From positions 1 to 55,374 of the forward strand of contig JBFIJP010000001.1 in NCBI GenBank assembly GCA_041600695.1: a stretch of 55,374 nt of DNA, given 5' to 3'. A program made the position numbers and the translations under genes. The notes beneath the pieces are model-generated. The model did no database searches and was not told the DNA's origin. It was given only the letters and a program-made list of their open reading frames with translations. Below, in pieces: positions 998-20,546 of the stretch (position 1 is its first letter; each line of letters begins with the position of its first letter). The DNA comes from Thermoplasmatota archaeon. GTDB taxonomy: Archaea > Thermoplasmatota > E2 > JACPAO01 > JAHFTW01.

Positions 998-2638
998 ATG
1001 CGAGAGATCGTCGCGGCACACGCGCCTTCGCTGGTGGCGTTTGCGGCGATGGTGGTCGTTGCCAGCGTCGTGGTGGCCGCCATGGGGTATCCCCAACTCG
1101 GCAGCCAGGCTCGCCTTGATCCCTTTCCCCTGGTGGCGGTGAGCGTACCTAGCCCCGCCGACGACCGGGACCTGGACGGTTTCGCCGACGGGAGCGATCT
1201 CGTCGACGGGGACCTTATCCTTTGGGTAAACGTGACTTCCTTGGACCTGGGCGCTTCCGGCGCGGCGCGCCCCTATCTGGTGGTCGGGACGCAAGACGAC
1301 CAGTGGCGCACGGGGGCTGGCGCGGAACTGGAATGGCGACACATCGTGGACCTGGATCCCCTCGGCCACAAGGCGGGGTCGCCTGCATGGGAGGCTACGG
1401 CGGTGCGCACCGGCATGTGGTGGCCGTCCCAGGGCGAGGCCCCGGGATCGCCGGTTCTAGGTACGTCCGGCCGACTGGACGAGGACGCGGCGACCCTTCC
1501 CCAGGCCTTCCCGGTGAACGTCCGCGATGATCGCACGCGAGTCAGCGTGGTGGTTGAATTGTGGGATGCGGCGCCACAGCCCGATCGTATGGCTGCGCGC
1601 TGGACCCTGGCGTATGACGTTGGCGACGCGGCCTGGGGCCTGGCCCCAAGAGTATCCTTTGCGGCCGGTGAGGCAGGATTGGTGGCCTCCGGAGACGCCT
1701 CCCTACAGGTCTCCGTGGCGCCGGGGAAGGAAGTGCCGGCCGCGCAGCGGATCACGCTGGCCCAGCGCTGGGCACCTGAACTTTGGTTTGACAGCCAAGA
1801 GGCACTCTACCCCACAACAGGCGATAGCCTGGAATCGTTCCACGGTTTCACGAAACGGGCACCCAACCTTCGCACCTGGGACCCGGATTTCAACGACGGC
1901 CGCGACGGCTACCGGCTCCTGGCTGCGGACTTCAACGGCGACCGGCAGACGGACCACCGGGACGTGGTCATCATGACGGATGTGCTGCGCGCCGGCAATA
2001 ACGCGCCGGACACCGTCTATGTCCATGCTGCCACGGTCCACGGCGGACGTTTCGTGCTGCAATACTGGTTCATTTACGCGTACAATTTTGTTTTCGATGA
2101 AGCCGGGCGGGACATTGCAGCCCTGGCCCACGCGGGCGATCGGGAATTCATGCAACTGGTGTTCGCCAATCGGACGGCGGCAGAGGCAGGTTTTCCTGAG
2201 AGCGTGGCATACAGCCAGCATTACCGGGGCGTGCGCATCGATGACCCCCAGCCGGGCCTGGCGCCGTTTCATTTGGACGATCAGCATCCGGCCGTGTTCC
2301 CGGCGCGGGGAAGCCACGCGTCCTATCCGGCGCCGGGCGATGACGAAAAGCTCCGTTCCAGGCTGGCCGGTTACGGTGACCGTTTCGATGGCGGCGGGGA
2401 GGTGTGGCTGCCCGGAAACTACACGCTGGAGCTGCTCTCCACCCAGGCGTGGCACCTGGGTTACAAGTGGGGTCCGGTGACCCGCTACTCCAGGGACATG
2501 GGCACCAGCCTCAAGCCGCTGCTACAGCATGATTTCCGTTACCCGTTCATCGATCCGCTGCACTGGCAGGGGCGGTTGCCGGCCGTGGATGCGTCGGACC
2601 TGATGGATCTTTACCGTACCCCGGAGGACCTGAGATGA
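998..2638 (+). CDS. Membrane-anchored hypothetical protein with a C-terminal Vps62/DUF946-like region
   Basis: 546-aa ORF with an N-terminal hydrophobic helix (LVAFAAMVVVASVVVAAMG). The C-terminal half has WAPELWFDSQEALYP, LQYWFIYAYNF, HAGDREF and YSQHYRG, which resemble the Vps62/DUF946 pattern (H.GDWE). The stop overlaps the next gene's ATG (ATGA at 2635). Confidence 0.55.
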   Translation: MREIVAAHAPSLVAFAAMVVVASVVVAAMGYPQLGSQARLDPFPLVAVSVPSPADDRDLDGFADGSDLVDGDLILWVNVTSLDLGASGAARPYLVVGTQDDQWRTGAGAELEWRHIVDLDPLGHKAGSPAWEATAVRTGMWWPSQGEAPGSPVLGTSGRLDEDAATLPQAFPVNVRDDRTRVSVVVELWDAAPQPDRMAARWTLAYDVGDAAWGLAPRVSFAAGEAGLVASGDASLQVSVAPGKEVPAAQRITLAQRWAPELWFDSQEALYPTTGDSLESFHGFTKRAPNLRTWDPDFNDGRDGYRLLAADFNGDRQTDHRDVVIMTDVLRAGNNAPDTVYVHAATVHGGRFVLQYWFIYAYNFVFDEAGRDIAALAHAGDREFMQLVFANRTAAEAGFPESVAYSQHYRGVRIDDPQPGLAPFHLDDQHPAVFPARGSHASYPAPGDDEKLRSRLAGYGDRFDGGGEVWLPGNYTLELLSTQAWHLGYKWGPVTRYSRDMGTSLKPLLQHDFRYPFIDPLHWQGRLPAVDASDLMDLYRTPEDLR

Positions 2639-3705
2639 CCGCTTCCACGCGGTCTTCGCCGCCGGCGCCCGGAGCCACGGACGCAGGCGGCGCGGCCGGG
2701 CAGGTGGAAGAAGAAACGGCCACCAGCCCTGCCGGCGCCGCCGGAGCAGCAGGAACGACCGGGGCCCCCGGCACGGCCGCCGGTTCACCCCGCCCAGGCG
2801 CCCGAGACCCGGATCGGCGGGAGCGAGGCATCCAGGCACAAGTGATCGACATCCTGGCCCGCGCCGTTCACGCACTCCATGGCAGTCGGGGGCTCCTGGT
2901 TGCCGTTCCGTTCCTTCTCGGCCTGTCCCTCATCGAACCCCTCCTGCCGCCGGAGGTGCGCACCACGCTCCTGACGGCACCCCTCATGCTTCTGGTGGCA
3001 TCGGCGCTGGCCACGCTGCCCCGGGAGGCCGCGGCCGCCCAGCATGTGGTCCGGGACCTTTCGGCGGATGGCCTCTCCGTCGGGCGGGTGGCCCGACGCA
3101 TCGCGTGGCCGACCGTCCTGATCATCTTGCTCCTGCCGCGACTCTTCCTAGGAGCTGTGGGCATTCCCCACCTGAACCCGTTGACAGGATTGGTCCTGCC
3201 GTCCATCACCCAGTCCCTTGCCACCGCCTTCCTGTTCCTGCTGCTGGTGGTCCCGGTCCTCTACCTGCGGGGCCTGCGCCACTATTCGCCCGCGGGAACA
3301 GGCGCTGTGCGCCCCATCCATTTGCCTCCGGAGCACCCCGAGCACCGGGCCCGCGACGCCCTTCTCGTCCTGACGTGGGTCGCCGGCATCTTCTGGGCGT
3401 GGCTGCTCAGGCCCTTCTGGCAGCCCTTCAGCCTCCTCGCCTGGCCACCCGGCCTGGCATCCCTGGAGAGCGTGCGAGGAGTGGCCAGCCTCACCTACAC
3501 GCTGGTGCTGCCCCTGGTGCTTCTCCAGACCATGGCCATCCATCTGGATCTCATCCGGGACATCCGGGAGGCAGGCACGCTGGGCCAGCACCGTGGGCTG
3601 GTCGCGGCCGCCGTAGGCCATGTCCTGCTGGCCCTCGGCGCCATGGCGTTGCACGCCTACGATGTGCTGTGGGTGGTCCGGTACCAGGCCGCGTCTGGGC
3701 TCTAG
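2635..3705 (+). CDS. Polytopic membrane protein of unknown function
   Basis: 356-aa ORF translationally coupled to the upstream gene. It has an Ala/Gly/Pro-rich N-terminus followed by at least 6 hydrophobic segments. I recognise no family motif. Confidence 0.5.
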   Translation: MTASTRSSPPAPGATDAGGAAGQVEEETATSPAGAAGAAGTTGAPGTAAGSPRPGARDPDRRERGIQAQVIDILARAVHALHGSRGLLVAVPFLLGLSLIEPLLPPEVRTTLLTAPLMLLVASALATLPREAAAAQHVVRDLSADGLSVGRVARRIAWPTVLIILLLPRLFLGAVGIPHLNPLTGLVLPSITQSLATAFLFLLLVVPVLYLRGLRHYSPAGTGAVRPIHLPPEHPEHRARDALLVLTWVAGIFWAWLLRPFWQPFSLLAWPPGLASLESVRGVASLTYTLVLPLVLLQTMAIHLDLIRDIREAGTLGQHRGLVAAAVGHVLLALGAMALHAYDVLWVVRYQAASGL

Positions 3706-3817: not shown

Positions 3818-4093
3818 CTACCCGCCAGCAATGGCGGGAATGATCCGGACCACGGCCCCGTCGTCCACTGGCGAGTCGATACCACCCCGCTCGTCGACAT
3901 CCACCTGGTCAACAAACACGCGGACAAACGACCGCAGGCGGCCCTCGGCGTCCAGCAGTTGCTGTCCCAGGTCAGGGTACTTGTCGGCCAGACTCTTGAT
4001 GGCGGCGCCCACGGTTGCAGCGTCCACGGGCACTTCGGCCTGGTCGCTGGCGAGTTTTCTCAGGACTGTCGGCAATCGGATGGTTACGCTCAT
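3818..4093 (-). CDS. cysO: ThiS/MoaD-family ubiquitin-like sulfur-carrier protein (CysO/SAMP-like), ending in Gly-Gly
   Basis: 91 aa starting at MSVTIRLPTVLR and ending ...VRIIPAIAGG* (diglycine C-terminus). The ATG at 4093 overlaps the TGA of the upstream JAMM gene (ATGA). The longer track ORF (to 4252) is an Arg/Pro-rich extension. Confidence 0.85.
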   Translation of the reverse strand: MSVTIRLPTVLRKLASDQAEVPVDAATVGAAIKSLADKYPDLGQQLLDAEGRLRSFVRVFVDQVDVDERGGIDSPVDDGAVVRIIPAIAGG

Positions 4094-4620
4094 GGTTGTT
4101 CCTCTGAAGAGATGATGAGGGGTGCCTCGATGAAGCGGCCGCCCCCTGGCGCCAGCACCCATGCGCGGATTTCCTCCTGGGGACGCGCGGCGCCGGGAGC
4201 CGATTGGATCGTCCGGTTGGGATCGGCCGGGTAGCCGTGGATGACGTACCATAGGCCGGGCAGGGCACCGTCCAGGTCAAACTGGCTGGGCACCGCCGGG
4301 GCGGGGGGATGTGAGTGGAAGATCCCGACGATGTGGCGGCCGCGTGCTTCGGCGGTATCCTCCGCGTCGGCGTAGGCCAAGGGGTCGATGCTGTAGCGAC
4401 GGAGCCTGGGCGGCTCGTGGACGTTTTCCATGGCCAGCAGGGCATCCGCCTTGTCGGGAGCAGGCCCCACCAGGAGGCCGCATGCTTCGTCTGGCAGGCA
4501 GGACTCCGACAGAGCCCGCAGATCCGCCAGCACGGCTTGCGTGACCGTGAAGGCGGCCACCCTGGACACGGCCGCGCGGCCCTCATGCAGGTTCTGGTCC
4601 GCCAGTGGAATGGGCTCCAT
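4090..4620 (-). CDS. mec: JAMM/MPN+ metalloprotease (Mec/JAMM deubiquitinase-like)
   Basis: Contains EACGLLVG and the JAMM motif HSHPPAPAVPSQFD (HxHx7Sx2D). Its stop is coupled to the cysO-like start. Confidence 0.85.
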   Translation of the reverse strand: MEPIPLADQNLHEGRAAVSRVAAFTVTQAVLADLRALSESCLPDEACGLLVGPAPDKADALLAMENVHEPPRLRRYSIDPLAYADAEDTAEARGRHIVGIFHSHPPAPAVPSQFDLDGALPGLWYVIHGYPADPNRTIQSAPGAARPQEEIRAWVLAPGGGRFIEAPLIISSEEQP

Positions 4621-4956
4621 GACCTAGCCAACCACTGGGCCTCGCCATAAGACGGCTCGCCTGGCGGCAGGTCTTGCCGGAGTCCGCCATCGAGCCGGCC
4701 GGGATCCACACATGTGTTCACTCCCGTCGCCGGGGCATGGGTGGGTCCGGCCCGCCTTGCATTACGCTTAAGAAGCCCCGGCGCCGATGGAGAAGGGACA
4801 TGATGTCCCAGGGTTTGACCCCGGCCAGCTTGCAGGACGACCACTCCTCGGAGTCGGTCGTCGCGGGAGCCGTCGGCAACCCCTGGAATTGTTGTTCCTC
4901 GGCGTGAGCCTGGCCGCAGGCTGCTCCCCGTCCTAGTCCTCGATGCGCCCCCTAGC

Positions 4957-5340
4957 GTGCGCTTGGTGTACCTCTGCCTCTGGATGGAGGCCGCTCGCAC
5001 GAGCCGTGAACTGCGCGACTGCACGGGCCTGCCCGAACGAACGGTCCGCCATGCCATCAAGTGGATGATCGAACAGGGCCTCGCTCGCCGGCAGACGACG
5101 CTCCAGGACGCCCGCCAGGACTACATCCTCCTCAACCGGGATGCCGACGCGGCGCAGACGCCCCCGGTGTCGCCACCACGAGCCCCGTCGTCGGCCGCCC
5201 GGTCCGCTCCGTCCGCCCCGTCCGCTCCGCAAGCCCTGTTAGCTCCATCGGCTCTGCCAGCCCCGGCAGCCCTGGCAGCCCCCGCAGCCTCACGCGCACC
5301 CCACCTGGCCAACCGGCAGGAGGCGGTCCATGTCGCATGA
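4957..5340 (+). CDS. Winged helix-turn-helix transcriptional regulator (MarR/ArsR/TrmB-like) with a Pro/Ser/Ala-rich tail
   Basis: SRELRDCTGLPERTVRHAIKWMIEQGLARR is a typical wHTH recognition segment. GTG start at 4957 (alternative ATG at 4984). The gene is divergent from the cysO/mec pair. Confidence 0.6.
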   Translation: MRLVYLCLWMEAARTSRELRDCTGLPERTVRHAIKWMIEQGLARRQTTLQDARQDYILLNRDADAAQTPPVSPPRAPSSAARSAPSAPSAPQALLAPSALPAPAALAAPAASRAPHLANRQEAVHVA

Positions 5341-5399
5341 TGCGGCAAAATCGGCCGCAGCACCAACAGCCATGTTCGACCGGCGGCTATGGGTTCTTC

Positions 5400-5852
5400 A
5401 TGAGTCTGAATCCCGCCCGGATCGACCCCCGCGGCGTCCGGTTCGCAGGCGTTCTGAGCACCCTCGTGGCGGCCTCGGCGGCCCTTCTGACGAGTCCCTG
5501 GATCGCCCTCGCCGGAGCCACGATTCTGCTTTCGGCCGCATGGGGCGGCTCCCGGCTCAATCTCTGGGGCCACATCTACCGCGCCACCCTGCGGCGCTGG
5601 CTGGGCCCCCCGGGCCACCTGGAGCCCGAGACGCCGGTGCGCTTCGCCCAACTGCTGGGCGGGCTGTTCCTGTTGGTGGCCGGAGCGGCCTTCCTGGCCG
5701 GTGGGCCGGGCATCGTGGTCGGGGCCGTGCTGGCTGGAATCGTCGCCGTGCTGGCGCTGGTCAACGCCGCCTTCGATGTGTGCATCGGCTGCCGCATGTA
5801 CGGCCTGCTGCTGGTGGACACCCGCCTACCCCGCTGGATCGGCATCCTGTGA
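5400..5852 (+). CDS. DUF4395-family membrane protein
   Basis: 150 aa from the ATG at 5400, with 4 hydrophobic segments, PVRFAQLLGG and the C-terminal FDVCIGCRMYGLL (CxGCxxY) typical of DUF4395. An alternative ATG at 5337 overlaps the upstream stop. Confidence 0.7.
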   Translation: MSLNPARIDPRGVRFAGVLSTLVAASAALLTSPWIALAGATILLSAAWGGSRLNLWGHIYRATLRRWLGPPGHLEPETPVRFAQLLGGLFLLVAGAAFLAGGPGIVVGAVLAGIVAVLALVNAAFDVCIGCRMYGLLLVDTRLPRWIGIL

Positions 5853-5886
5853 GAATTACCTCCATACCAACCCCGGAGGCGGCGCG

Positions 5887-6894
5887 TTGACGGCGTTCAG
5901 GACCTCTCCCCTGGAGAGCCGCGTCGGCAACACGCCGCTTCTTGACCTCTCCCACCTGGTCGGGCGGCCAGGCGTCGAACTCTACGCCAAGGCGGAGTGG
6001 CACAATCCCGGCGGTTCCGTCAAGGACCGACCCGCCCTCCGCATCATCCAGGATGCCATCGCCCGCGGCGACCTGCGGCCCGGGGTCAGCCTTCTGGATG
6101 CCACCAGTGGAAACACCGGCATCGCGTATGCGTGGATCGGTGCCGCCAAGGGGTTCCCCGTTACGCTCACACTGAGCGAAGGGGCGAGTCCGGCTCGCAA
6201 GAAGATCCTGCAAGCCTACGGTGCGCGCCTGATCTACACAGACCCGGCAGAGACCACCGATGGCGCCATCCGGCGCGCCCACGAACTGGTCGCCGAGAAC
6301 CCCAACGCCTTCTATTACGCCGATCAGTACAGCAATCCCAGCAACCTGGCCGCACACCGCGAAGGCACGGGGCCGGAAATCTGGAAGCAGACGGCTGGCC
6401 GCGTAACTCATTTCCTGGCGGGACTCGGCACCAGCGGCACGCTCATGGGAACAGGATCGTTCCTGCGCGGGGCGCAGCCGGACATCCAGCTCATTGGCCT
6501 CCAGCCGGATGCGCCTTTCCACGGCCTTGAAGGCCTCAAGCACATGGACACCGCTATCGTGCCCGCCATCTACGAGCCCACCACCATCGACCGACAGATC
6601 ACAGTGCCCACGGAAACCGCCTATGCCCAATGCCGCGCCCTGGCCCGCGAGTCGGGCCTGCTGGCTGGCATCAGCGGCGGCGCCGCCGTGGCTGCGGCCC
6701 TGGATCTGGCTGCCGAGTTGGACGAGGGCGTGATCGTCACCATTTTGCCCGACAGCGGCGAACGTTACCTGTCCGAGCCCTTCTGGTCCGAGGCCAACCG
6801 CCGCCCCGCGCCAGCACGACCGCCGGCCCAGCGAACGAGCCCCGATCCGACCACCGCCAACCCAACCACCGCCAACCCAACCCCGAATCCATGA
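5887..6894 (+). CDS. cysM: PLP-dependent cysteine synthase, CysM-like
   Basis: GNTPLL, NPGGSVKDRPA (PLP lysine), TSGNTGIA, GLGTSGTLMG and PDSGERYLS. Likely TTG start at 5887, 8 nt after GGAGG (5875-5879); the track ORF start at 5701 would overlap the DUF4395 gene. It has a Pro/Thr-rich tail (PTTANPTTANP, a 15-bp tandem duplication). The stop overlaps the moeZ ATG. Confidence 0.85.
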   Translation: MTAFRTSPLESRVGNTPLLDLSHLVGRPGVELYAKAEWHNPGGSVKDRPALRIIQDAIARGDLRPGVSLLDATSGNTGIAYAWIGAAKGFPVTLTLSEGASPARKKILQAYGARLIYTDPAETTDGAIRRAHELVAENPNAFYYADQYSNPSNLAAHREGTGPEIWKQTAGRVTHFLAGLGTSGTLMGTGSFLRGAQPDIQLIGLQPDAPFHGLEGLKHMDTAIVPAIYEPTTIDRQITVPTETAYAQCRALARESGLLAGISGGAAVAAALDLAAELDEGVIVTILPDSGERYLSEPFWSEANRRPAPARPPAQRTSPDPTTANPTTANPTPNP

Positions 6895-8072
6895 GCTTCC
6901 CCCCCGCCGTCCAGGCTGACTGGACACAGGAACAGCTATCCGTCGACGACCGCGGCCGATACAGCCGCCACCTCCTCATTCCGGAGGTCGCCATCGATGG
7001 CCAACGCAAACTGAAGGCCAGCCGCGTGCTCATCGTCGGGACCGGCGGCCTGGGCAGCCCGGCAGCGCTCTACCTGGCCGCAGCCGGTGTTGGCACGATT
7101 GGACTCGTCGACGCGGACGTGATCGACACCAGCAACCTGCAGCGCCAGGTGCTCTACGGCACCAGCCAACTCGGCCAGAAGAAGCTGGAAATGGCCAAGG
7201 CCCGGCTCCAGGATCTGAACCCCAACGTCAACGTGGTCCTCCACGACACCTGGCTGACATCCCAGAACGCGCTCGAAATCGTCGGCCAGTACGACATCGT
7301 GCTGGACGGGACGGACAATTTCCCGACACGCTACCTGGTCAACGACGCCTGCGTCCTCGCCGGCGTCCCCAATGTGTACGGGAGCATCTTCCGCTTCGAA
7401 GGCCAGGTGAGCGTCTTCTGGGCCGCCCAGGGGCCGTGCTACCGCTGCCTCTACGCCACCCCGCCGCCGCCCGGGCTTGTCCCGAGTTGCGCGGAAGGGG
7501 GCGTGCTCGGCGTTCTGCCCGGAGTGGTCGGAACCCTCCAGGCGACGGAGGCCATCAAGGTCCTGCTCGGAATCGGAACCCCCCTGGTGGGTCGCCTGCT
7601 GCTCTACGACGCGCTTCACCTCAGCATCGAGGAAGTGAAGCTGCGCAAGAACCCCCATTGCGTCGTCTGCGGCCCCAACCCCAGCATCAAGGCCCTCATT
7701 GACTACGAGGAGTTCTGTGGCATGCCCGGCGCCGAAGGCGGCCAGGTCCAGGCCGGCGTGCCCGAGATCACCGCCGCGGAGCTCAACGTGCAACTGCAAA
7801 ACGGCCACCCGCCACTGGTGCTGGATGTCCGCGAGCCGACCGAGGCGGCCATCTGCAGCATCCCCGGCGCACCCCTGGTCCCCATGGGCCAACTCGCCCA
7901 GCGCATCGACGAACTGCCCAAGGACCGCCCCATCGTGGCGTACTGCCGCAGCGGCCTCCGCAGCGCCCAGGCCACCCGATTCCTCCGCGACAAGGGCCTC
8001 AACGTGGTCAACCTGCACGGCGGCATCCTCGCCTGGATTGATGACGTGGACCCGGGGCAGGCGCGCTATTGA
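6891..8072 (+). CDS. moeZ: ThiF/MoeB-type E1-like adenylyltransferase fused to a rhodanese domain (MoeZ/UbaA-like)
   Basis: RYSRHLLIPEV, IVGTGGLGSPAALYLAAAGVG (nucleotide loop), CYRC and CVVC zinc pairs. The C-terminal rhodanese has the active-site loop YCRSGLRS. ATGA overlap with cysM. Confidence 0.9.
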   Translation: MSFPPAVQADWTQEQLSVDDRGRYSRHLLIPEVAIDGQRKLKASRVLIVGTGGLGSPAALYLAAAGVGTIGLVDADVIDTSNLQRQVLYGTSQLGQKKLEMAKARLQDLNPNVNVVLHDTWLTSQNALEIVGQYDIVLDGTDNFPTRYLVNDACVLAGVPNVYGSIFRFEGQVSVFWAAQGPCYRCLYATPPPPGLVPSCAEGGVLGVLPGVVGTLQATEAIKVLLGIGTPLVGRLLLYDALHLSIEEVKLRKNPHCVVCGPNPSIKALIDYEEFCGMPGAEGGQVQAGVPEITAAELNVQLQNGHPPLVLDVREPTEAAICSIPGAPLVPMGQLAQRIDELPKDRPIVAYCRSGLRSAQATRFLRDKGLNVVNLHGGILAWIDDVDPGQARY

Positions 8073-8796: not shown

Positions 8797-10110
8797 CTAC
8801 GGCCAGGGCACGAACACGAACGCCGCTGCGGCGATGCCCACCAGGGTCGTGGCCACGGCGGGAACAAGCAGTGGCTTGAGGAGCGGGCGGTGGACCGCCT
8901 GCGCCACGGCCGGCTTCATCAGCAGGCTAAGCATGGCCGACAGGATCGACACCTGGCCGGCGACCAACACGTCCACCTGGCCCTGGAACGCCAGGAGACC
9001 CATGGACGCGAAGACGGCGCCTGTCGAAACTAGGCCCCCGAAGGCCGCCAGATAGATGGCCTTCGGGCCGAGGCCCGGAATCTCCTGCAGGAGCGCGGCG
9101 GCCACCGAGAAAGCCAGAAACAGCAGGCCGAAGCGAAGCGCGGAGCGCAGTGCAAACGGGGAGCGCACTCGCAAACTGGAGATTTCCGTCGCCGGCCCCC
9201 CCGTTTCCACCTCGTTTTCGTCGGGCTGGCTCAGGTCCGCGCCCCGGGAACCCCACGCAAACAGGATGAGTCCCATGAGGGCCAAGGGCACGACGACCAC
9301 CTTTGCGAGTTGGAGGCTTGGATCGGCAATGACCGCGATGGAGAGGTTGCGTGCAAACATCATGGCGCTGGCCAGCAGGATTGCCCGCGCCGCCAGGTTG
9401 GCCAGCCGCGATTGGTTGCGGGCGATGGCCGCCATGGAACCGGTGGCCGCCGTGCTGCTCACCAGCCCGGACAGGAGCCCGGCAACCAGCAGGCCCCGGC
9501 GGGCGCCCATTTGGCGCATGATGATGAAGCTCACGAACGATAGCACGCTGACCAGGACCACGATGAGGAGGATGCGTCGCGGTGCCACGGCCCCGAGGGG
9601 ATCAATTGCCTCGGTGGGGGCAAGCGGGAGGACAATGAACGCGATCACCACGAACGTAAGCGCCTCACGCAACTCCGCTTCCGTCATCAGGGTGGCAAGC
9701 TGGTGGAGGCTGCTTCGGGTCATTAGGAGAGCCGTCGTCGCTACCGCGACCACCACGGCCTCCACCTGTAGCCCCAATCCCACCAGCACACCAACGAGGA
9801 ACGTGACAAAGAGGGCGGCCGCCGTCGTGAGCCCGGTTCCCCCGTCACGCATGCGAGCCTGGATGACCATTAAGGCGAAACCGCCAAAGAGGGCAATTCC
9901 AAGCGGAACCACATACGCAGAATCCAGGCGGTCGGCCAGAATGGTCATGAGCACTCCGGCCAGCGCCACCAGGGGCATGGTGCGTACGCCGGCAACGACA
10001 TCGCGCTGGGCACGATGGCGCTCCCGCTCCAATCCTACCAGACCGCCCAGGCCAAGCGCCAAGGCGAAACGCGCCACCAGGTCCCAATCCACCGCGTCGG
10101 GGAAGGCCAC
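8797..10110 (-). CDS. MgtC/SapB-family membrane protein with a DUF4010-like C-terminal extension
   Basis: The N-terminus FALALGLGGLVGLERE is the MgtC signature. The protein is 437 aa and highly hydrophobic throughout. GTG start at 10110. Confidence 0.75.
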   Translation of the reverse strand: MAFPDAVDWDLVARFALALGLGGLVGLERERHRAQRDVVAGVRTMPLVALAGVLMTILADRLDSAYVVPLGIALFGGFALMVIQARMRDGGTGLTTAAALFVTFLVGVLVGLGLQVEAVVVAVATTALLMTRSSLHQLATLMTEAELREALTFVVIAFIVLPLAPTEAIDPLGAVAPRRILLIVVLVSVLSFVSFIIMRQMGARRGLLVAGLLSGLVSSTAATGSMAAIARNQSRLANLAARAILLASAMMFARNLSIAVIADPSLQLAKVVVVPLALMGLILFAWGSRGADLSQPDENEVETGGPATEISSLRVRSPFALRSALRFGLLFLAFSVAAALLQEIPGLGPKAIYLAAFGGLVSTGAVFASMGLLAFQGQVDVLVAGQVSILSAMLSLLMKPAVAQAVHRPLLKPLLVPAVATTLVGIAAAAFVFVPWP

Positions 10111-12763: not shown

Positions 12764-13597
12764 TCAATGCGTCAAACAGTGCAACGAACCGAAAGCGGCC
12801 CGCGCGCTGGTCGCAAGGGCCGGATTCCGCCTAACCTGCTCCCCGAGGCTCTCCCACGCCCGATCGGCGTACTGGTGGCCTGGAAAGACGACGATTTCCG
12901 GGGCCAGCGCCCGCAGCCGCGCCATGGAGGCAAACATGGCGTCGGTGTCGCCGCCGGGGAAGTCGGTGCGTCCGCAGGTGTCAATGAAGAGCGTGTCGCC
13001 GCCAAAGAGCGCCTGGCCCCGCCCGGCGGCGCCGACGAGGTAGCACGAACTCTCCGGCTGGTGGCCGGGCGTATGGAGAATCTCGATGGGCACGTCGCCG
13101 ATGTCGAGGCGTTCGCCGTCGGCCAGCAGGTGCACTGTTCCCAGTTGCTCGAACTCCGTGACCTTCGGGTGGCTCGCGGCGGCCTCGTGGATGCCGATCT
13201 CAGCGACGCCGCGACGGTGAATCTCGGGGATGCCGCCGATGTGGTCCCAGTGGCCGTGCGTGAACAGGGCCCGGCTGATGCGATACCCGTCCGCCTGGGC
13301 CAGAGCGAAGACCCGGTCCAGCTCGAACGCCGGGTCGATGACCAGCGCCTCCCGGGTCTCGGGGTCGCCGACGACGTAATGGAAGTTCTCGTGGGGTCCA
13401 GCCAGGACCTGCCGGAGGTAGAAGCCGAGGTCGGGGGCGTCGTGGCTGAAGTCCTGGAAGACCACGAGCGCCCCAGCGTGCCCCGGCGGCAAAGCCGTTT
13501 CGAGGCATGGCAAGGCTGCCCGGGGCCGTGCGGGCGGCCGCGCCGCTGGCGGCCGCGGCGCTCCGCCCCTGCTAGGGGATGTTGATCTGTTAGACAC
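12764..13597 (-). CDS. Metallo-beta-lactamase-fold hydrolase, persulfide dioxygenase (ETHE1)/glyoxalase II-like
   Basis: THGHWDHIGG (HxHxDH), HTPGH and GDTLFIDTCGRTDFPGGD. The start is uncertain: GTG at 13597, or an internal GTG near 13465 giving VVFQDF... Confidence 0.8.
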   Translation of the reverse strand: MSNRSTSPSRGGAPRPPAARPPARPRAALPCLETALPPGHAGALVVFQDFSHDAPDLGFYLRQVLAGPHENFHYVVGDPETREALVIDPAFELDRVFALAQADGYRISRALFTHGHWDHIGGIPEIHRRGVAEIGIHEAAASHPKVTEFEQLGTVHLLADGERLDIGDVPIEILHTPGHQPESSCYLVGAAGRGQALFGGDTLFIDTCGRTDFPGGDTDAMFASMARLRALAPEIVVFPGHQYADRAWESLGEQVRRNPALATSARAAFGSLHCLTH

Positions 13598-18315: not shown

Positions 18316-19347
18316 GTGAAGATCGCCAACAACGTCCTAGACCTGATGGGCAACACGCCACTCGTGCGGCTCAACAAGGTCGTCCACAAGGGCGGCGCCC
18401 CCGTGGTCGCAAAAATGGAGATGTACAACCCGGGCTTCAGCGTGAAGGACCGCATTGGCCTGCCCCTCATCCGGGCCGGCGAAGAGCAGGGCCTCCTCAA
18501 GCCCGGCGGGACCATCGTTGAACCCACCAGTGGCAACACCGGCCTCGGCCTGGCCATGGCCGCAAGCCTGCTCGGCTACCGCATGGTTTGCACTCTGCCT
18601 GACAAGGTGCCCATGGAGAAGCAGAGGCTGCTCCAGGCCTTCGGCGCCGAACTCATCGTCTGTCCCACCAACGTCGAGGCCGACGACCCCCGCTCCTACT
18701 ACAAACAGGCCGAGCGAATGCGCGACGAAGAAGGCGCCTACCTTCCCTACCAATACTACAACCAGGCCAACCCAACCGCCCACGTGACCACCACGGGGCC
18801 CGAGATCTGGCGCGACACCGACGGCAAGATTACCCACTTCGTCGCCGGCATCGGCACCGGCGGCACCATCAGCGGTACCGGCAAGGCACTGCACGAGGCC
18901 GCCCGCGCGGCCGGCCGGGATGTCCAAGTCATCGGCGTCGACACGGTGGGCAGCATCTACGAGCACTACTTCCACCACCGGGAGTTCCCCAAGTACATCC
19001 ACCAGTACCTCATCGACGGCATCGGCGAGGACTTCATGCCCGAGACGGTATGGTGGGACCAGATCAATGATGTGCGCACCGTCAGCGACCAAGATGCCTA
19101 CCTGATGCAGGCCCGGCTGGCCCGCGAGGAATCCATCTTCACCGGATCCAGTGGCGGCGCCGCCGTCGCCGGCGCCGTTGCGGTTGCCAAGGACCTCTCG
19201 CCGGACGACTTGGTCGTGACGCTGCTGCCAGACAGCGGCGAGCGCTACCTCAGCAAGTTCAACGAGGAATGGCTGACCGCCAAGGGCCTCACCAAGGCCG
19301 CCAGCTACCTGGCCACCAGCCAAAGCAGCACCGACCTGGAGGAGTAA
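18316..19347 (+). CDS. PLP-dependent cystathionine beta-synthase/cysteine synthase family enzyme (no CBS-pair domain)
   Basis: GNTPLVRL, NPGFSVKDR, TSGNTGLGLA, GIGTGGTISG and PDSGERYLSKF. GTG start at 18316. Confidence 0.85.
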   Translation: MKIANNVLDLMGNTPLVRLNKVVHKGGAPVVAKMEMYNPGFSVKDRIGLPLIRAGEEQGLLKPGGTIVEPTSGNTGLGLAMAASLLGYRMVCTLPDKVPMEKQRLLQAFGAELIVCPTNVEADDPRSYYKQAERMRDEEGAYLPYQYYNQANPTAHVTTTGPEIWRDTDGKITHFVAGIGTGGTISGTGKALHEAARAAGRDVQVIGVDTVGSIYEHYFHHREFPKYIHQYLIDGIGEDFMPETVWWDQINDVRTVSDQDAYLMQARLAREESIFTGSSGGAAVAGAVAVAKDLSPDDLVVTLLPDSGERYLSKFNEEWLTAKGLTKAASYLATSQSSTDLEE

Positions 19348-19349
19348 GC

Positions 19350-20546
19350 ATGGTGCGCCTCGAAAACACGGACGGGCCCGGCACACGCTGCGTCCACGCT
19401 GGTGTCACCGCCGACCCCCAGACAGGAGCCGTAACACCTCCACTTCACCTTTCGAGCACGTTCGCGCAGCAGGGCGTCGGGGTCCACAAGGGATTCGAGT
19501 ACGCCCGCACCGGCAACCCCACCCGCGGCTTCCTGGAGAAGGCCATCGCCCAGCTCGAAGCGGGTCCAGCCGGGGCCGCCGCGGGCGCCCGCGGGCTAGC
19601 CTTCGGCAGCGGCAGCGCCGCGCTGGACACCCTCCTTCGCCTGCTGGACACGGGCGACCACGTGGTGTGCGCCGAAGACGCCTACGGGGGCACCATCCGG
19701 CTGCTGACCAAGGTCACCAACCGGTGGGGCCTCGGCGTGACGTTCGTGGATACCCGCGACCTGGACGCGGTGCGCGCCGCCATGACTCCCAAGACGCGCA
19801 TGGTGCTGATGGAGACGCCCACGAACCCGATGCTGCGCGTGAGCGACATCGCCGCGGTGGCAGAGATTGCTCACGCTGGCGGCGCGCTGCTCGTGGTGGA
19901 CAACACGTTCATGAGTCCGGCCCTGCAACGCCCCCTGGATCTCGGCGCTGACCTGATCTACCACTCAGCCACCAAGTACATCGGTGGCCACAGCGACGTG
20001 GTCGGCGGCCTGATCGTCGCCAAGGACCCCAAGATCGGCGAGGACCTGGCCTTCCTGCAGAACGCCGTCGGCGCCATCCTGAGCCCCTTCGACTCCTTCC
20101 TGTTGCTGCGCGGCCTCAAGACCTTGCACCTACGCATGGAGCGCCACTGCGCCAGCGCCGCCACGCTGGCGGCCCGCCTGGCCAAACACCCTGCCGTGGA
20201 GGAAGTCTACTTCCCCGGCCTCCCCGGCCACCCCAACGCGGATGTGCAAGCCCGCCAGGCCAGTGGCCCCGGCGGCATGCTGAGCTTCCGCCTGCGGGAC
20301 GGCCCCACAGCGCGGCGGATGGTGACCGCGACGCGGCTCTTCCAACTCGCCGAATCCCTCGGCGCCGTGGAATCGCTGATCCAGGTGCCGGCTGCCATGA
20401 CGCATGCAGCGGTGCCAGCCGAGATTCGCAAGCGGACCCGCCTCGACGAGGGACTCGTGCGCTTGTCGGTGGGCGTGGAAGACGTTGAGGACCTGTGGGC
20501 CGACCTGGAGCGGGCCCTGGCCCAGATCGAGCTCGTTGCCTCATGA
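19350..20546 (+). CDS. Cys/Met-metabolism PLP-dependent enzyme, cystathionine gamma-lyase/synthase family
   Basis: YARTGNPTR, DNTFMSP, HSATKYIGGHSD (PLP lysine) and LAESLGAVESL. It lies 2 nt downstream of the CBS-like gene. Confidence 0.85.
   Translation: MVRLENTDGPGTRCVHAGVTADPQTGAVTPPLHLSSTFAQQGVGVHKGFEYARTGNPTRGFLEKAIAQLEAGPAGAAAGARGLAFGSGSAALDTLLRLLDTGDHVVCAEDAYGGTIRLLTKVTNRWGLGVTFVDTRDLDAVRAAMTPKTRMVLMETPTNPMLRVSDIAAVAEIAHAGGALLVVDNTFMSPALQRPLDLGADLIYHSATKYIGGHSDVVGGLIVAKDPKIGEDLAFLQNAVGAILSPFDSFLLLRGLKTLHLRMERHCASAATLAARLAKHPAVEEVYFPGLPGHPNADVQARQASGPGGMLSFRLRDGPTARRMVTATRLFQLAESLGAVESLIQVPAAMTHAAVPAEIRKRTRLDEGLVRLSVGVEDVEDLWADLERALAQIELVAS

Follow-up and report, generated by a model that had tools for sequence, protein, structure and literature searches.

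How does an archaeon use a gene cluster that joins a ubiquitin-like protein, an E1-type activating enzyme and a JAMM protease to a cysteine synthase: to build cysteine on a protein carrier, or to attach that protein to other proteins? The question is raised by a six-gene locus at positions 3,818 to 8,072 of a 55,374-nucleotide stretch of DNA from a Thermoplasmatota archaeon (contig JBFIJP010000001.1, assembly GCA_041600695.1), the whole of which is called the window here. The window is contig 1 of a metagenome-assembled genome (MAG; 86% complete, 4.2 Mb, 589 contigs), in which no archaeal SSU rRNA was found. Its locus encodes a ThiS-family ubiquitin-like protein (Ubl), a JAMM protease, a small winged-helix (wHTH) protein, a membrane protein of the DUF4395 family, a CysM-type cysteine synthase and a MoeZ-type E1 enzyme with a rhodanese domain. 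By analogy with Mycobacterium tuberculosis, we consider it highly likely that the core of the locus is a CysO/CysM/Mec+/MoeZ-type route, which would lead to cysteine through a protein thiocarboxylate. The explanation taken as a whole, in which the wHTH protein regulates this core and DUF4395 is an accessory of the rhodanese step, appears likely as well, with somewhat less assurance.

The chemical steps that we infer from gene identities, motifs, synteny and phyletic patterns follow the M. tuberculosis pathway. MoeZ would adenylate the C-terminal Gly-Gly of the Ubl, and a persulfide on its rhodanese residue Cys352 would turn the adenylate into a thiocarboxylate. CysM, with pyridoxal phosphate (PLP) bound to Lys46, would form an aminoacrylate, most likely from O-phosphoserine, to which the Ubl thiocarboxylate would be added. 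After an S-to-N acyl shift, the JAMM protease would cut off cysteine and restore the Ubl. The wHTH protein is the likely local regulator and would control the divergent promoters of the two gene sets.

An earlier note on this DNA, made from the sequence alone, had proposed these six genes and a CysO pathway. All six are present as placed, and both of the ATGA couplings that it described can be read in the sequence (Table 1): on the minus strand, the JAMM stop is shared with the Ubl start at 4093-4090, and the MoeZ start overlaps the CysM stop in the same way. The CysO pathway is also the best reading of the cluster. In a comparison with PDB proteins, the best solved relative of the Ubl was M. 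tuberculosis CysO (3DWG_C, E 2.7e-14), which aligned with it from end to end, followed by 4N6E_B, a CysO-like protein of the ThiS/MoaD family, whereas a SAMP1 homologue reached only E 0.14. The JAMM protein has an intact zinc motif (E45, H102-S-H104, S112, D115) and finds its best PDB matches in 2kcq and PfJAMM1. The catalytic features of CysM include the PLP-binding Lys46 (SVK46DR) and the Asn loop TSGNTG. MoeZ carries a GTGGLG motif, two CxxC pairs, Cys200 and a six-residue rhodanese loop, C352-RSGLRS.

Table 1. Features of the locus; positions are counted from the first nucleotide of the window.
Feature	Position	Strand	Support
CysO-like ubiquitin-fold sulfur carrier (Ubl), 91 aa, C-terminal GG (AIAGG)	3818-4093	-	PF02597 ThiS, E 8e-12
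JAMM/MPN+ zinc metalloprotease, Mec+-like, 176 aa	4090-4620	-	PF14464 Prok-JAB, E 5e-19
Divergent intergenic region, 336 bp, presumed promoter/operator for both gene sets	4621-4956		inferred from its position between the two units
Small winged-helix regulator (wHTH)	4957-5340	+	weak MarR_2 match, E 0.004, under cut-off
DUF4395 membrane protein, four transmembrane helices, C-x-G-C motif	5400-5852	+	PF14340, 107.8 bits
CysM-type PLP-dependent cysteine synthase	5887-6894	+	PF00291 (PALP), E 1e-67
MoeZ-type E1 adenylyltransferase with rhodanese domain	6891-8072	+	ThiF E 1e-83, Rhodanese E 1.5e-16

On the plus strand, the ATG at 5400 is favoured over 5337 as the start of DUF4395 by the lengths of its relatives, and CysM begins at a TTG about 9 nt past a GGAGG. 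The gaps between wHTH and DUF4395 (59 nt) and between DUF4395 and CysM (34 nt) are short, which makes a single operon of wHTH, DUF4395, CysM and MoeZ plausible. An inverted repeat or operator was looked for in the divergent intergenic region and was not found there. The N-terminal 71 residues of the wHTH protein, including the segment GLPERTVRHA, are conserved in relatives and are followed by a Pro/Ala/Ser-rich tail; its profile matched the structures of AspA and MarR at E values of about 0.007, and the gene is kept with the cluster in four relatives. CysM likewise ends in a genus-specific Pro/Thr-rich tail. Low-complexity tails rich in Pro, Thr and Ala lie at 6790-6891 (CysM), 5140-5337 (wHTH) and 66-400 (a ferredoxin-like protein encoded at the beginning of the window). 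None of the three tails is present on the orthologues from the other genus with this layout, and the CysM tail is confined to the window's genus.

Among the genera sampled, two of one family share the six-gene layout with gene order and orientation unchanged; protein identities are 82-93% within the window's genus and 42-65% to the other genus. Because the layout is retained over identities from 42 to 93%, the arrangement is more than chance. Eleven of 41 relatives, the same genomes in each case, have a high-scoring JAMM together with CysM (54% identity or more) and rhodanese-fused MoeZ (55% or more), and the three genes stand side by side there in varying orders. In other families of the order, CysM, JAMM, Ubl and MoeZ are collinear or partly split, and collinear operons of this kind occur in at least six other families of the Thermoplasmatota. 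Across the phylum, a CysM match with E < 1e-70 was found in 29 of 151 genomes, and all four genes were side by side in 6 of 16 loci inspected. The closest non-archaeal CysM sequences are bacterial (58-62% identity; Acidobacteriota, Chthonomonadales, Anaerolineales), and all three bacterial loci inspected have the operon layout CysM-JAB-ThiS-E1/rhodanese; in two, carrier and E1 form one fused protein. In a tree of CysM proteins, sequences of the cluster type group together, with archaeal lineages intermixed with bacterial ones and weak support for the deep branches; its bacterial rows were selected as the best matches to the window CysM, and the direction of transfer between the domains is not readable from it.

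Thus, the earlier note's view that such a complete locus is unusual in archaea finds no support. An operon of ThiS/MoaD, E1-rhodanese, JAB and cysteine synthase genes was catalogued by Iyer, Burroughs and Aravind in 2006 (Table 1, row 4c; PMC1779556), and the statement of a 2010 survey that JAB genes rarely adjoin Ubl genes in archaea (PMC2948915) reflects the sampling of its time. The gene content of operon type 4c, found today in Acidobacteriota and other bacteria, is identical to that of the core described here. The window differs from it in three ways: Ubl and JAMM are turned round to form a divergent unit, the regulator and DUF4395 precede cysM, and the carrier is a free-standing protein, where some bacterial copies have a carrier-E1 fusion. 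A literature search found no paper naming CysO together with Thermoplasmata. The four-part cluster is already known and is common among bacteria, and the insertion of wHTH and DUF4395 is a lineage-specific variant.

The genome contains three genes of the ThiS family, all ending in GG: the cluster Ubl, a MoaD on contig C365 and a small Ubl on contig C2. The MoaD gene lies directly upstream of MoaA and MoaE (L016:1318-3015). The earlier note had allowed that the Ubl might prove to be a MoaD or ThiS of another pathway; this does not apply, because a dedicated MoaD-MoaA-MoaE set lies elsewhere, and the cluster Ubl is thus neither encoded with MoaE nor the only carrier available to it. The set adjoins a molybdopterin oxidoreductase. 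The third Ubl (L017:505-690) has about 66 residues, ends in LSGG and adjoins an aldo/keto reductase; it is possibly a carrier for tRNA thiolation. A single E1 was found in the window MAG, in both same-genus genomes and in a relative that is 93% complete. A second candidate on contig C576 with a weak ThiF match was rejected as the N-terminus of an FAD/Rossmann oxidoreductase. With no other E1 found in the genome, MoeZ very probably charges MoaD and the third GG-ended Ubl as well, and the idea of an E1 with more than one task is borne out to that extent. Such a dual role, in the CysO-route cysteine pathway and with MoaD, is established for the mycobacterial MoeZR (PMC3227635). Homologues of the E1 in two relatives carry in-frame stops (G017:C14:5576-6664 and G032:C2:24333-25031; two TAG and one TGA), which may reflect a frameshift, an assembly error or recoding.

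The substrate of CysM was approached through one residue and through the genomic setting. Arg220 of M. tuberculosis CysM (3DWG_A), which Agren et al. reportedly implicated in O-phosphoserine recognition in 2008, aligns with Lys218 of the window CysM inside the segment FHGLEGLKHM. This Lys is kept in all aligned cluster-type CysM sequences, archaeal and bacterial, and has the same basic charge as the mycobacterial Arg220. E. coli CysM presumably also has Arg here, and users of O-phosphoserine and O-acetylserine are then not separated by this position. A Lys at this site is compatible with an anionic substrate and does not settle the choice. As for the setting, no serine acetyltransferase (CysE) scored above the cut-off in 41 relatives, 18 of which are at least 90% complete, and no siroheme sulfite reductase (NIR_SIR) was found in the window MAG or in five other cluster-bearing genomes. 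An ATP sulfurylase is present in the window MAG (contig C406). The apparent lack of both CysE and sulfite reductase fits a route that depends on O-phosphoserine and is independent of free sulfide. Another region of the window (18316-20546, plus strand) contains a CBS-like PALP paralogue that is 39-41% identical to CysM and that may point to a second way of making cysteine, by transsulfuration.

The closest characterized system is the O-phosphoserine-dependent one of M. tuberculosis, made up of CysO (Rv1335), CysM (Rv1336), Mec+ (Rv1334) and MoeZR (Rv3206c). The same four protein types are found in the window, and the E1 resembles MoeZR in its rhodanese domain, in its six-residue active loop and in its probable service to MoaD (PMC3227635). 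In contrast to the mycobacterial system, MoeZ is encoded inside the locus, where it is unlinked in M. tuberculosis; the window CysM is only 38% identical to its mycobacterial counterpart and has Lys for Arg220, the host is an archaeon, and wHTH and DUF4395 are added. MoeZ scored 482.8 bits with the model PRK07878 and missed its equivalog cut-off of 647. An actinobacterial variant of the operon (row 4d, PMC1779556) includes genes for ClpS and a helical protein; neither was noted among the window genes, where no dedicated search for them was made.

The neighbourhoods of DUF4395 were surveyed at 76 other loci from Actinomycetota and a few Halobacteria. None of the 76 has a CysO, JAMM or MoeZ gene beside DUF4395. 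A thioredoxin-like gene with a transmembrane anchor and a CxPC motif adjoins it in 65, a tandem-rhodanese sulfurtransferase lies 3' of it in 45 (with a 4-nt overlap in 17 of 44), and DUF1416 follows in 43. Two archaea of the same order as the window's host have DUF4395 at a different locus, coupled to a membrane-anchored thioredoxin-like gene. In Propionibacteriales, the DUF4395/thioredoxin-like pair is followed by CysK and cystathionine gamma-synthase or by CysE and an amino-acid transporter, and in one Actinomycetospora by a Cds1-like cysteine desulfhydrase (CysK-, CysE- and Cds1-type loci: L087:7998-11398, L065, L072:5502-8556, L044 and L031:7455-9513). The common actinobacterial operon consists of a ThiX-type thioredoxin-like gene, DUF4395, a thiosulfate sulfurtransferase of the CysA/SseA type and an SseC-type DUF1416 gene; as in the window, a DUF4395 protein with the same CxGCxxY motif stands there beside a rhodanese. 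It differs from the window in that the only rhodanese of the window operon is the C-terminal domain of MoeZ and that the locus has neither a thioredoxin-like nor a DUF1416 gene. In the literature searched, DUF4395 is mentioned only in passing, and this actinobacterial operon is uncharacterised.

The match of the DUF4395 protein to PF14340 lies above the family cut-off of 24.5 bits, and the invariant columns of the family alignment are D, PxRF, G and CxGCxxY. An AlphaFold2 model with a predicted local distance difference test (pLDDT) score of 90.5 has four transmembrane helices; under the positive-inside rule, the two termini are predicted to lie in the cytoplasm, and the CxxC motif at the end of the fourth helix to face it. 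A search of PDB sequences with the DUF4395 profile gave no match. The YgaP-like transmembrane domain (PF11127), which is the membrane domain of a membrane-bound rhodanese, matched the window protein at 14.8 bits, below its cut-off of 25.3; seven of 19 DUF4395 members match PF11127 (best E 0.0015), and the hhalign probability was 14%, from an alignment of no more than 21 columns centred on the region of the Cys motif. A homology between the C-terminal half of DUF4395 and the YgaP-like domain is thus suggestive but unproven.

DUF4395 is present in 150 of the 401 Actinomycetota genomes surveyed, and in five of these roughly 150 copies (G572, G407, G381, G539 and G231) an in-frame TGA stands precisely where the others encode the first Cys of CxxC. 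In all five, the reading frame and the LGCxxY motif continue past the TGA. Four of them share a conserved hairpin, CCUGCUG-GUN-CAGCGGG, about 20 nt downstream, which resembles a bacterial selenocysteine insertion sequence; no comparable hairpin was found downstream of the TGA in the divergent copy G231. These genes are candidate UxxC selenoproteins. An exchange of selenocysteine (Sec) and Cys between homologues is known to mark catalytic redox cysteines.

To judge from the operon partners together with the TGA at the first Cys of CxxC, DUF4395 is probably a thiol/persulfide redox protein of the membrane that faces the cytoplasm and acts with rhodanese-type sulfurtransferases and in cysteine metabolism. 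The earlier note had suggested a role in sulfur handling from a conserved position of DUF4395 between the regulator and cysM. That position is found only in two genera, and the 76 loci without a CysO, JAMM or MoeZ neighbour speak against this argument; the role itself draws support from other evidence, namely the operons with rhodanese, thioredoxin-like, CysK, CysE and Cds1 genes and the Sec/Cys pair in CxxC. In the window pathway, DUF4395 may reduce or recycle a disulfide of the rhodanese/E1 or an acyl-persulfide left on MoeZ after sulfur transfer. Alternatively, it may act at the membrane as a relay that passes sulfane sulfur (from thiosulfate, for instance) to the rhodanese domain. Taken by itself, the proposal that DUF4395 acts in the rhodanese step of this pathway, as an accessory added in the window lineage, seems to us somewhat short of an even chance. 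More tentative still is the wider proposal that the DUF4395 proteins make up a family, not described before, of thiol oxidoreductases (with C(U)xxC) or persulfide relays that work in the membrane for rhodanese-domain sulfurtransferases, and that DUF4395 has been wired here directly into a carrier-protein cysteine pathway, where it would feed or recycle the cysteines of MoeZ. If true, it would represent the "primary sulfur donor / reductant" step for MoeZR-type enzymes.

Two other accounts of the core cluster compete with the CysO-type route. The host is an archaeon, and in Haloferax volcanii SAMP1-3, UbaA and HvJAMM1 are likewise a set of several GG-ended Ubls (three in the window genome), one E1 and a JAMM protease; the Ubl, E1 and JAMM of the window could then carry out a sampylation-like conjugation and deconjugation, with CysM as a mere neighbour. 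The top NCBIfam names of the window proteins include SAMP1 (56 bits), desampylase (61.6) and UbaA (329.6), and any conjugation in this cell would need MoeZ, the sole E1 found. All three scores, however, fall below the curated equivalog cut-offs of 60, 130 and 450, and UbaA has no rhodanese domain. In Haloferax, no cysteine synthase gene is clustered with this set. In the present cluster, the adjacency of CysM survives several changes of gene order and spans two domains of life. The Ubl is far nearer to CysO than to SAMP1 structures, and the cell has a better candidate for a general desampylase in a second JAMM gene (contig C498), which is lower-scoring, of a housekeeping type and present in nearly all relatives. 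Conjugation as the main function is accordingly very unlikely. The second account separates CysM from its neighbours and makes it a conventional sulfhydrylase that takes up free sulfide, or takes up thiosulfate and forms S-sulfocysteine, while the Ubl, JAMM and MoeZ would serve other sulfur transfers, such as those to molybdenum cofactor, tRNA thiolation or another thio-metabolite. E. coli CysM, which uses O-acetylserine and thiosulfate, is the closest solved relative of the window CysM; many close homologues carry the JGI label "S-sulfo-L-cysteine synthase (O-acetyl-L-serine-dependent)", and MoeZ must also serve MoaD. Against this, no serine acetyltransferase was found in the 41 relatives, which leaves no evident O-acetylserine, no siroheme sulfite reductase to supply sulfide was found in the six cluster-bearing genomes examined, MoaD has a locus of its own, and the CysM, JAMM and Ubl genes adjoin or overlap in many lineages. 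We regard an independent CysM as improbable, if less so than a conjugation system.

A third account concerns the two added genes: wHTH and DUF4395 could be passengers caught between the halves of a rearranged operon, unconnected in function with the making of cysteine. Both genes are missing from most copies of the cluster, most DUF4395 genes are located elsewhere, and archaea of the same order hold DUF4395 at another locus beside a thioredoxin-like gene. Against this, the pair has kept its position in both genera, between which its proteins are no more than 42-49% identical, it lies on the strand of CysM with short gaps, and in Actinomycetota DUF4395 is independently associated with genes for rhodanese, CysK, CysE and Cds1. 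The passenger account is unlikely in our view, and it is the least unlikely of the three. Several observations weigh against the preferred reading of a CysO-type route with a regulator and a DUF4395 accessory. For CysM, the TIGR01138 (cysM) score of 338.7 bits is below the cut-off of 394, and the protein is about equally distant from the E. coli (225 bits) and M. tuberculosis (198 bits) enzymes; for these two reasons, the choice of substrate is read from context only. The residue at the mycobacterial Arg220 position is Lys and not Arg. All of the genomes are MAGs, so that CysE, sulfite reductase or a second E1 may have been missed. For DUF4395, the usual thioredoxin-like partner is missing at the window locus, and in most cluster-bearing lineages the gene lies outside the cluster. 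A Foldseek search of the PDB with its model returned only generic helix bundles (best E 0.18), and its fold was for this reason left unassigned.

The surroundings of the cluster are also shared among relatives, and both flanks are syntenic within the window's genus. The upstream flank (998-3705, plus strand) encodes proteins of 546 and 356 residues without Pfam matches, and the downstream flank (8797-10110, minus strand) an MgtC/DUF4010 membrane protein. The two upstream flank genes also occur near the cluster in genus g7, but on its opposite side. A protein of the metallo-beta-lactamase fold (Lactamase_B, E 1e-20) is encoded 4.7 kb from the cluster at 12764-13597 on the minus strand.

The core cluster itself adds little to what was catalogued before, and the most useful outcome of this analysis is the comparative picture of DUF4395. 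With a redox site, a predicted topology and a consistent set of partners now in hand, the function of this family is directly testable. The primary sulfur donor of MoeZR-type enzymes is still unknown (PMC3227635), and DUF4395 may bear on where MoeZ-type enzymes obtain their sulfur and reducing power. For the organisms, the CysO-type pathway would be a regular route to cysteine in high-GC Thermoplasmatota that apparently have neither serine acetyltransferase nor siroheme sulfite reductase, and a single E1 with a rhodanese domain could supply cysteine and molybdenum cofactor synthesis as well as a third Ubl.

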